Shown here: one piece after another, positions 1-1,055 of the stretch
Layout of the letters: every line of letters begins with the position of its first letter
Numbering within the stretch: position 1 is the stretch's first letter
NCBI GenBank assembly: GCA_000004985.1
Contig: GG739590.1
Reading direction: 5' to 3' (one strand)
Origin: Naegleria gruberi
Taxonomy: Eukaryota
DNA length: 1,055 nt
Notes under the pieces: generated by a model
Database searches by the model: none
The model's input: the letters and a program-made list of their open reading frames with translations, nothing else
Told to the model about the DNA's origin: nothing
Translations under genes and position numbers: made by a program

Positions 1-186
1 ATTTTCCTTAATTTTGGAAATCAAAAAAAATGTTCAAACTTAAAATCCTTATTCCCAACAGACATTGCATTGTTATTAGAGGTGCTGGTGCAATACTTGC
101 TTTTATTAAATCAATCAACAACAAACACTATACCACCACCTTTCCTCCATTCAACAAACGTAACGAATCTCTCTAAACAAGGATAA
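1..186 (+). CDS. Possible 3' end of an upstream ORF in frame 1 (61 sense codons from the window edge to TAA 184-186); weak, possibly a compositional artefact
   Basis: Frame 1 has no stop from position 1 to 183. Frame 3 is also open over 30-173 (ATG 30, TAA 174). Frame 2 contains only TAA/TAG stops here. Having all three + frames open at once over a C/A-rich, G-poor stretch suggests a composition effect rather than a clear gene. Confidence 0.2.
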   Translation: MFLNFGNQKKCSNLKSLFPTDIALLLEVLVQYLLLLNQSTTNTIPPPFLHSTNVTNLSKQG

Positions 187-214
187 GGAAAGTTATCAAA
201 ATCTAATTGAGGAT

Positions 215-406
215 ATGCCAAATGCTTTCCAATTTTTGAATGTTGTCAAAACATGGGAATCTCCAACAAGAGCTGCAACTAGATCACCTCCTTTTGTTGG
301 CCGATACGAATCATTATTTCAAACGATTGAAACAATTTACAAACCTCTCCCTGAAGATAAACTTCAAATAGGACTCATTTCAAATACTATGGGAATGGGA
401 AAATAG
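215..406 (+). CDS. Segment A of the frame-2 coding locus: ATG-initiated 63-codon ORF ending at in-frame TAG (404-406); hypothetical protein, product not recognised
   Basis: Track ORF, checked by hand. ATG 215-217 is the first ATG in frame 2 in the window. The translation is MPNAFQFLNVVKTWESPTRAATRSPPFVGRYESLFQTIETIYKPLPEDKLQIGLISNTMGMGK, which reads as protein-like. It shares its frame with the two downstream segments. Frames 1 and 3 over the same span contain early stops (TAG 280, TGA 328, TGA 237). Confidence 0.45.
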   Translation: MPNAFQFLNVVKTWESPTRAATRSPPFVGRYESLFQTIETIYKPLPEDKLQIGLISNTMGMGK

Positions 407-443
407 ACCTTCCTCTACCAATGCATTAATAGATTTCTTGATA

Positions 444-488
444 GTAAGTTGTTATTGTTTCAGATTAGGAGTTTAACTCCTTATTAAG
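444..488 (+). other. Candidate 45-nt intron (GTAAGT donor 444-449, AG acceptor 487-488) that would remove the in-frame TAA 485-487 and keep frame 2
   Basis: This is the second of only two GTAAGT hexamers in the window. The length of 45 is 3n. The splice joins a443 to a489-t490 as an AAT codon and continues DNLLYEF in frame. The AAG acceptor is weak. This cannot account for the TAG at 404, because no GT dinucleotide occurs between 297 and 404. Confidence 0.15.
467..481. repeat. 15-nt perfect palindrome AGGAGTT-T-AACTCCT (7-bp arms, 1-nt centre)
   Basis: Read directly: the reverse complement of AGGAGTT is AACTCCT. The arms do not extend further (t466 and t482 are not complementary). Confidence 0.9.
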
Positions 489-496
489 ATGACAAC

Positions 497-703
497 TTGC
501 TGTATGAATTCATTTTCAATGAAGATCCATTTGGGGCCAGTAAAAAACATATACAAGATAGCTTCAACAAGATTACATGTCCAGAATCTTACTCCAGAGC
601 TGACTTTGTCAATAAGTTGAACAAATCCTTCAAAATTAGACATTTTATTCCTTTCGAATGTTCAGCAAGCAATCTTCCAATCCGCGATTGTAAGTCTCAA
701 TGA
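497..703 (+). CDS. Segment B of the same frame-2 locus: open from 488 (just after TAA 485-487) to TGA 701-703; hypothetical protein
   Basis: Track ORF (its listed start is TTG 497; there is no ATG in this frame within the segment). It is in the same frame as segment A. The 26 codons between them (407-484, TFLYQCINRFLDSKLLLFQIRSLTPY) also contain no stop. Translation: MLYEFIFNEDPFGASKKHIQDSFNKITCPESYSRADFVNKLNKSFKIRHFIPFECSASNLPIRDCKSQ. Confidence 0.45.
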   Translation: MLYEFIFNEDPFGASKKHIQDSFNKITCPESYSRADFVNKLNKSFKIRHFIPFECSASNLPIRDCKSQ

Positions 704-749
704 AAAGATTTCTTTCATCTTTTTAAGTATTTCATGAAATGATTAAAAG
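690..749 (+). other. Candidate 60-nt spliceosomal intron (GTAAGT donor 690-695, AG acceptor 748-749) that would remove both in-frame TGAs and keep frame 2
   Basis: GTAAGT begins at 690. An AG at 748-749 gives a length of exactly 60 nt (3n). The splice joins t689 to a750-c751 as a TAC codon, giving ...PIRD-Y-IFGHSL... in frame. Weaknesses: the acceptor context is AAAAG|A, with no pyrimidine tract and not the usual YAG, and there is no clear branch point. The removed segment also reads as sensible codons (KDFFHLFKYFMK). Confidence 0.25.
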
Positions 750-1055
750 ACATATTTGGGCACAGTTTGACACCTACCAAAGCACATAAAACTGTCGAAG
801 AGTTGGTGGGTGAGAAGGGATTGAATGGCCCTGAATTGGTCCAATTAAATGCTCCAAAAGTCAAAGATATCTTTACAGTCCCAAAAGAGTATCAACAGAA
901 TTTATTGCCTCTGATTTTATTGATTGATTCATTTCATGCCATCAACACAAACACTTGCCCCAATGGTTCTCTTTATGAAGTTGGAATTCTCCTATTCGAA
1001 AGCATGAAATATGTACTGAAATCCAGTGCCACTTTGTCTCTTGTTTTATCTGCCA
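743..1055 (+). CDS. Segment C of the same frame-2 locus: 104 sense codons with no stop, truncated by the 3' window edge; hypothetical protein
   Basis: Hand translation of frame 2 from 743 gives LKDIFGHSLTPTKAHKTVEELVGEKGLNGPELVQLNAPKVKDIFTVPKEYQQNLLPLILLIDSFHAINTNTCPNGSLYEVGILLFESMKYVLKSSATLSLVLSA with no stop before position 1055. It is probably absent from the track because it has no stop. There is no start codon at its 5' end (the first in-frame ATG at 734 is followed two codons later by TGA 740; the next is at 1004), which argues that it continues segment B. All three minus frames have multiple stops across this span. GC rises to about 47% around 781-840. Confidence 0.55.

Follow-up and report, generated by a model that had tools for sequence, protein, structure and literature searches.

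Short spliceosomal introns of ciliates come in several size classes, with 55 and 64 nucleotides (nt) in Tetrahymena, 48 and 69 nt in Ichthyophthirius and a middle class of 47-51 nt in Oxytricha and Stylonychia (Bondarenko & Gelfand, PMC5014332). Ciliate introns whose length is a multiple of three are under-represented, and they are enriched in in-frame stops (PMC5014332). Stop triplets also stand in open frames where the nuclear code has been changed. Where TAA is reassigned in ciliates it averages about 1.4% of codons (PMC10089648), sense UGA accounts for 0.042% of codons in Condylostoma magnum and 0.12% in Parduczia (Swart et al., 2016, PMC4967479), and Blastocrithidia uses UAA at 2.1-2.3%, UAG at 1.4-1.7% and UGA at 0.7-0.85%, with UAA and UAG together (UAR) at 3.4-3.9% (PMC12153298). 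Nuclear codes that reassign UAG alone and retain UAA and UGA as stops are described for phyllopharyngean ciliates (UAG as Gln or Leu), Iotanema, a rhizarian and Scotinosphaera (McGowan et al., 2024, PMC11687900). The locus analysed here is a 1,055-nt stretch of contig GG739590.1 (the window; 34% guanine plus cytosine, GC), in which one forward reading frame runs open across four in-frame stops of all three types.

We read the window as a fragment of a nuclear eukaryotic split gene with very short spliceosomal introns and one exonic TAG, and give this reading a probability of about 70%. The four stops differ in their setting: two intron-like segments contain three of them, and the fourth is in an exon. 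Recoding is not the only way for a frame to stay open across several stops; short introns with lengths in multiples of three give the same picture, and in-frame stops are an expected feature of them. To tell the two apart, one asks whether the stops are gathered shortly after donor hexamers, in AT-richer segments from which the coding signal is lost. The gene is an orphan example of already known kinds of features, and its novelty is low. Its predicted parts are as follows.

215-443, plus strand: exon A, frame 2, beginning at 215 with ATG215 as initiator or, if joined to an upstream exon, at 212; holds TAG404
404-406, plus strand: in-frame TAG in the exon context ATG GGA ATG GGA AAA TAG ACC
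444-488, plus strand: candidate intron 1, 45 nt, GTAAGT...TTATTAAG, phase 1, length a multiple of three, AAG acceptor, contains TAA485
489-689, plus strand: exon B, frame 2, 66 codons
690-749, plus strand: candidate intron 2, 60 nt, GTAAGT...GATTAAAAG, phase 1, length a multiple of three, AAG acceptor, contains TGA701 and TGA740
750-1055, plus strand: exon C, frame 2, 101 codons, open at the window end

According to this model, the exons from 215 (or 212) to 443, from 489 to 689 and from 750 to beyond 1055 would all be read in frame 2 of the plus strand. Segments 444-488 and 690-749 would be spliced out, and TAA485, TGA701 and TGA740 would never be translated; were an intron retained, its in-frame stops would truncate the product. 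The genomic frame appears continuous because the lengths of the predicted introns are multiples of three.

One stop-poor frame

The sequence-only reading of this DNA had described frame 2 (codons beginning at 2 + 3k) as open over 215-403, 407-484, 488-700 and 743-1055, interrupted by TAG404, TAA485, TGA701, then 12 codons, then TGA740, and a recount bears out both the coordinates and the codons. Frame 2 is also, as it had stated, the only stop-poor frame over 215-1055, with 4 stops vs 25 and 13 in the other forward frames and 13-20 on the minus strand. The null for this count was a set of 20,000 dinucleotide-preserving shuffles, in which the best of the six frames over 215-1055 held 12.1 +/- 2.0 stops and P(<=4 stops) was 4e-4. 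The stop pattern is real and beyond chance. When both candidate introns are removed, 1 stop remains in 245 codons; none of the 20,000 shuffles reached that value (0/20,000), a figure that is post hoc.

Stop depletion is seen exon by exon. Exon A has 1 stop in 76 codons, vs 7 and 2 in frames 1 and 3; exon B has none in its 66 codons (vs 8 and 1), and exon C none in its 101 (vs 5 and 7). Their GC fractions are 0.354, 0.348 and 0.382, respectively, and codon-usage scores agree among the exons and collapse in shifted frames. The coding periodicity by which the sequence-only reading proposed to check the frame is found in part: the period-3 signal is 1.8 vs 0.93 in shuffles, whereas position-specific composition is weakly heterogeneous (chi-square p = 0.08, whole window). 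The strongest position-specific signal is that of exon C (p = 0.051), with G at 28% of first codon positions. Besides stop depletion, then, the intrinsic coding signal is modest.

Chance would have to mean that the window is AT-rich and non-coding and that one of its frames is stop-poor by accident. The want of a homologue and of a confident fold, the weak composition periodicity and the fact that the window was picked by a reader seeking exactly such a pattern all fit that explanation, yet it hardly deserves credence given the probability of 4e-4 over six frames, the stop-free runs of 101 and 66 codons and the consistency of codon-usage scores among exons, which is lost when the frame is shifted.

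The claim that frame 2 is one continuous coding unit, and no frameshifted old pseudogene, also holds, as does the remark that a code-11 annotation would break this unit into fragments. A prokaryotic alternative would take those fragments at face value, as small open reading frames (ORFs) packed together in phage or low-GC bacterial DNA and sharing a frame by chance, with TAG possibly recoded. Small orphan ORFs are common in phages, the window combines 34% GC with CpG depletion, and a GAGGA precedes ATG215. However, that GAGGA stands just 1 nt from the ATG, and 407-484 and the segment from 743 onward have no usable ATG start: in frame 2, ATG is absent from 743-1004 and also from TAG404 until 734. 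A Shine-Dalgarno-ATG arrangement was looked for in the window and none was found, and promoter-like and terminator-like sites in the window occur at chance level only. The segments are not independent prokaryotic ORFs because they lack in-frame ATG codons and Shine-Dalgarno-ATG arrangements and have promoter-like and terminator-like sites at chance level, which also upholds the view of the sequence-only reading that independent genes are not expected here. Furthermore, no DNA or protein match appeared in the viral, plasmid, phage, genome and metagenome collections searched, and packed ORFs leave the placement of GTAAGT unexplained. We regard this alternative as exceedingly improbable.

Two candidate mini-introns

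The hexamer GTAAGT occurs in the window at 444 and 690 alone, on the plus strand only (shuffle mean 0.10; P(>=2) = 0.004), and both copies interrupt a frame-2 codon behind its first base (phase 1). The probability that two random positions would remove at least three of the four stops, through intervals of at most 60 nt that end in AG and have a length in multiples of three, is 6.7e-4. Within 690-749, the shortest GTAAGT-initiated interval with a length in multiples of three that clears both TGAs, GC falls to 0.233, which places it among the lowest 2.2% of windows of 60 nt; the value for 444-488 is 0.289, at the 20th percentile.

The coding signal is lost in both segments. In-frame composition was scored with a leave-out position-specific model trained on the remaining frame-2 codons and was compared with exon chunks of equal length. 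Segment 444-488 scores -0.236 bits/codon, under the 5th percentile of exon chunks (-0.127), and 690-749 scores -0.165 bits/codon, again under the 5th percentile (-0.100). Branch-point-like TTTAAC (472-477) and TTCAT (731-735) fit by eye the yTnAy expected 10-20 nt before an acceptor, a motif low in information, and candidate intron 2 has a pyrimidine tract at 710-724. Excision of candidate intron 1 also improves a weak match of the encoded protein to the Pfam family AAA_22. What the analysis shows directly is the frame statistics, where the two segments lie and how they are composed, and the lack of homologues; splicing, the meaning of TAG404 and the taxon are inferred.

Several points weigh against this interpretation. 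Candidate intron 1 is just mildly AT-rich, as its 20th-percentile GC indicates, both acceptors are AAG and not the commoner TAG or CAG, and that two of two introns should have lengths in multiples of three is somewhat uncommon, with a chance of about 1/9, but not rare. Taken as a whole, the position-specific composition signal is weak (p = 0.08), and an AlphaFold2 model of exon C made without an alignment is uninformative (predicted local distance difference test score, 42). The intron model was built after the stops were seen, which makes its P values post hoc, and splicing and coding are both inferred from a single 1-kb sequence, for which the searches found no homologue.

Nonsense decay accounts for the same stops in another way. 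A decaying standard-code pseudogene would have no introns and would have gained four independent nonsense substitutions, whether by ordinary mutation or by fungal repeat-induced point mutation (RIP). Substitutional decay does yield in-frame stops of several types, and the lack of a homologue is compatible with fast-evolving or decayed sequence. That four nonsense changes should arise without a frameshift, three of them inside two GTAAGT...AAG segments with lengths in multiples of three, is nevertheless improbable (the P of 6.7e-4 above, from positions alone), and the exons retain full stop depletion. We consider such a pseudogene very unlikely. RIP as its agent was rejected on both of its indices: TpA/ApT is 0.59, where at least 0.89 is needed, and (CpA+TpG)/(ApC+GpT) is 1.66, where at most 1.03 is needed.

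The predicted introns resemble the short introns of ciliates in their sizes of 45 and 60 nt, which go with the Tetrahymena/Ichthyophthirius classes (48-69 nt) and the Oxytricha/Stylonychia middle class (47-51 nt), in their GTAAG donor, in the in-frame stops of introns with lengths in multiples of three and in being AT-richer than the exons; the 45-60 nt sizes, the donor and the stops all match published descriptions (PMC5014332). They differ from spirotrich introns at the 3' end, which is ATTAAG or TTAAAAG here and TATAG in spirotrichs. The set compared consists of ciliate introns, whereas the candidates here are predictions from sequence. A similar short-intron architecture occurs in standard-code fungi and small-intron animals, and the exon GC of 35-38% is above that of Tetrahymena or Paramecium.

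Other boundaries and other elements were considered for the two segments. A 20-nt mini-intron at 444-463 (GTAAGTTGTTATTGTTTCAG, TTTCAG acceptor) was rejected, as its splicing would shift the frame onto TAG466 and clash with the downstream open frame. An internal excised segment of the Paramecium type (internal eliminated sequence) at 690-749 was set aside because its ends do not fit TAYAGYNR by eye, and selenocysteine at TGA701 and TGA740 was judged implausible, with two such codons within 13 codons of an orphan. Downstream of the pyrimidine tract at 710-724, use of an internal AAG (725-727) as acceptor would shorten the intron to 38 nt (690-727) and shift reading into frame 1, which ends at TGA811; it is possible that this alternative splice form would encode a truncated protein.

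Genetic code and the exonic TAG

The explanation implied by the sequence-only reading is that all four stops are sense codons and that there is no intron, as in the codes of Condylostoma and Parduczia (tables 27/28) or Blastocrithidia (table 31), with TGA read as Trp. This locus and those codes share the presence of all three stop triplets in one open genomic frame. The frame is then continuous without splicing, and the peptide ...KSQWKDFFHLFKYFMKWLKDIFG..., with W at the TGAs, looks plausible. The codon frequencies, however, fit neither group. At the published sense-UGA frequencies, 0.1-0.3 UGA codons are expected in 280 codons, vs 2 seen within 13 codons, and Blastocrithidia usage predicts about 10 UAR vs 2 observed. 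Both TGAs also fall in the 60-nt stretch where the gene is richest in AT, right after a GTAAGT and where coding signal is absent, and introns explain the TGAs and the TAA better. Decoding of all three stop types as sense is not supported, as three of the stops sit in two GTAAGT...AAG intervals, and we rate it as scarcely credible. TAG404 alone calls for a special explanation; TAA485, TGA701 and TGA740 lie inside the candidate introns.

The ciliate code of table 6, in which TAA and TAG encode Gln and TGA is the only stop, would need a single 60-nt intron at 690-749, with TAG404 and TAA485 read as Gln and 444-488 coding. The two TGAs, 39 nt from each other, are the only ones that frame 2 contains anywhere in the window, vs 5-12 in the other frames, and it goes for up to 233 codons without a TGA (shuffle P = 0.03). 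Moreover, a 60-nt intron with a length in multiples of three and in-frame TGAs is typical of Tetrahymena-class introns (PMC5014332). UAR codons are nevertheless far too rare for table 6, at 1-2 in 245-260 exon codons, with TAA at 0-1 vs CAA at 7-8; the ciliate average of 1.4% for reassigned TAA is more than is seen here (PMC10089648). The apparent UAR codons before 215 sit in frame-2 sequence that scores as non-coding and is not stop-depleted, and 444-488 opens with the other GTAAGT, closes with an AAG that keeps its length a multiple of three, and loses coding signal. This code is therefore unlikely for the locus.

In the preferred split-gene reading, TAG404 is the one stop that splicing would leave in place. 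We consider it exonic because GT is absent from 297-443 and because the sole canonical GT..AG interval with a length in multiples of three that holds it, 296-406, looks like coding sequence and shows no AT enrichment. On these grounds a third intron there, which would remove TAG404 under the standard code, was rejected: its donor GTTGGC is poor, its GC of 0.342 is exon-like, and the in-frame composition of 296-403 falls at the 69th percentile of exon chunks.

An exonic TAG has two main explanations, which we rate about equal, each a little short of an even chance. TAG404 may be a sense codon, in a lineage in which UAG alone is reassigned or in which UAA and UAG both encode Gln, as in many ciliates, or it may be a premature stop in a standard-code organism, whether a nonsense allele, a young pseudogene or a base-call error. 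The second asks for one lesion and no unusual biology. The in-frame TAG inside an exon and the absence of TGA from every exon recall ciliate table 6, but TGA-free exons are expected under the standard code too and do not discriminate. What sets the locus apart from table 6 is the count of one UAR in 245 exon codons, with no TAA vs 7 CAA; within the core exons UAR is 1/243 codons, with TAA at 0 vs CAA at 7.

The resemblance to codes that reassign UAG alone is that TAG is the sole exonic stop type, while TAA485 and TGA701/740 would be intronic and TAA184 ends a frame-1 ORF. The fit here is to one codon (n = 1). A particular form of this idea takes UAG alone as sense, with UAA and UGA stops acting as checkpoints in mini-introns whose length is a multiple of three, and lets UAG encode Ser or Thr rather than Gln. 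The Ser/Thr meaning is proposed because TAG404 falls at the [S/T] position of a Walker-A-like sequence (GMGK-TAG-T). As far as the citing account covers the matter, UAG as Ser has so far been reported for the green alga Scotinosphaera alone (cited in PMC11687900). We consider this form quite unlikely.

Should TAG also stand at conserved sense positions elsewhere in the parent genome, the locus would point to a UAG reassignment in its lineage, and new lineages of this kind continue to come to light. Should no such TAG occur, the locus would be a nonsense allele of no wider interest. The remaining interest of the window is the chance that its source organism uses a reassigned UAG, which we put somewhat below even.

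Just upstream of the TAG, a hexamer ATGGGA occurs in tandem (389-394 and 395-400) and is followed by AAA TAG, and this AAA-TAG resembles a Euplotes slippery site. A Euplotes-type frameshift at AAA-TAG (401-406) was rejected: coding stays in frame 2, which is open over 407-484 and 488-700, and the +1 frame stops at TAA474. A longer Euplotes path from frame 2 to 3 to 1 and back to 2, feasible in principle, was also rejected, since its second and third sites are not AAA-TAR and it leaves the best frame-2 peptide unused.

Encoded protein and upstream region

The protein is an orphan within the resources searched. Word-indexed searches of 5.8 billion clusters were made with the table-6 spliced protein, with the unspliced translation (Q/W at the stops) and with the frame-1 piece described below joined to the two-intron protein; none found a relative, the first at E <= 0.01 and the other two at E <= 10. 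A phmmer search with 743-1054 (104-residue exon C) against 1.84 billion representatives gave no significant match, and pattern scans with the back-translated protein found no relative in metagenome, viral or genome contigs. An exact 36-mer of the window was absent from the viral, metagenome and genome contigs searched, and the products of its code-11 ORFs had no exact counterpart. There was no blastn match among phages and plasmids, and no significant match in PDB, PHROGs, PADLOC or Pfam. NCBIfam returned ComGA alone (E = 0.16), and matches of the window to Rfam were at chance level only.

Below significance, a set of weak Pfam matches is colinear with the protein. A weak Walker-A-like stretch, GLISNTMGMGK-TAG-TFLYQCINRFL, has TAG404 at its [S/T] position and Thr as the next codon, and a Walker-B-like LILLIDSFH lies in exon C about 150 residues downstream. 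When the two-intron protein was compared with Pfam under different readings of the TAG, every score fell below its gathering threshold, and the gain with Ser or Thr is partly built into the test. The matches were as follows.

TAG as Gln: AAA_22, E = 0.26, 12 bits
TAG as Ser or Thr: nSTAND_NTPase5, E = 0.008-0.011, 16 bits (gathering 34)
TAG as Ser or Thr: AAA_22, E = 0.016-0.03, 15-16 bits
TAG as Thr only: AAA, AAA_14 and ResIII, E = 0.09-0.21
TAG codon deleted: AAA_22, E = 4e-4, 21.1 bits (gathering 27)
TAG as Leu, Glu or Tyr: no match

The features shared with P-loop NTPases of the AAA_22 and STAND kinds (PF13401, PF25199) are a hydrophobic strand, GMGK, the helix-like TFLYQCINRFL and a downstream hhhhD (LILLID). 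Unlike those proteins, the predicted product has Asn for the first Gly of GxxxxGK, TAG for [S/T] and a spacing of about 150 residues from Walker A to Walker B; its MGMG peptide arises from the duplicated ATGGGA hexamer (389-400). A divergent P-loop NTPase is thus a tentative assignment, which we hold somewhat more doubtful than not. If it were true, Gln would be wrong at the TAG, and this would favour a lesion from TCG (Ser) or, with much lower probability, a code with UAG as Ser or Thr. An SNF2/DExH helicase, suggested by eye from MGMGK..T and DSFH, was rejected, with no match to SNF2_N and with ResIII alone at E = 0.21 when the TAG is read as Thr. Elsewhere in the protein, within the peptide YSRADFVNKLNKSFKI (about 575-625), SRADF[V/I]NKLN matches the uncharacterized PDB entry 2rld_A at chance level (E = 0.61), with no Pfam support.

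CpG is strongly depleted in the window, with an observed/expected ratio of 0.33 (10 vs about 30 expected). TpG (1.36) and CpA (1.24) are in excess, and TpA stands at 0.55. Either methylation-driven decay or AT-rich codon usage could give this pattern, which points to no lineage.

Upstream of exon A, frame 2 is broken by TAA41, TAG77, TAA107 and TAA161. Its 4 stops over 1-214 compare with 2 and 3 in frames 1 and 3, so that frame 2 is not stop-depleted there, and codon-usage log-odds against the core exons are -0.36 bits/codon in frame 2, +0.17 in frame 1 and -0.06 in frame 3. The frame-2 coding signal begins at about 212-215, in line with the start coordinate given by the sequence-only reading. 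Because frame 2 of 1-214 is not stop-depleted and scores as non-coding, its UAR codons are uninformative on the code, and a code with UAR as Gln across the whole window, first suggested by these codons, was rejected on the same ground. Frame 1, on the other hand, is stop-free from base 1 to TAA184 (1-183, 61 codons), and a GTAACG at 160, in phase 0 and with in-phase acceptors at 181, 187 or 211, could link frame 1 to frame 2. Two further features may accordingly be placed here.

1-159, plus strand: tentative upstream exon, frame 1, stop-free, codon usage like that of the downstream exons
160-211, plus strand: possible intron, 52 nt, GTAACG...AATTGAG, in the size class of the other two introns

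The position-specific score of the upstream frame-1 sequence is just -0.034, and the exon call is tentative for that reason. Alternatively, the frame-1 piece may be the end of an upstream ORF, with TAA184 lying 28 nt before ATG215.

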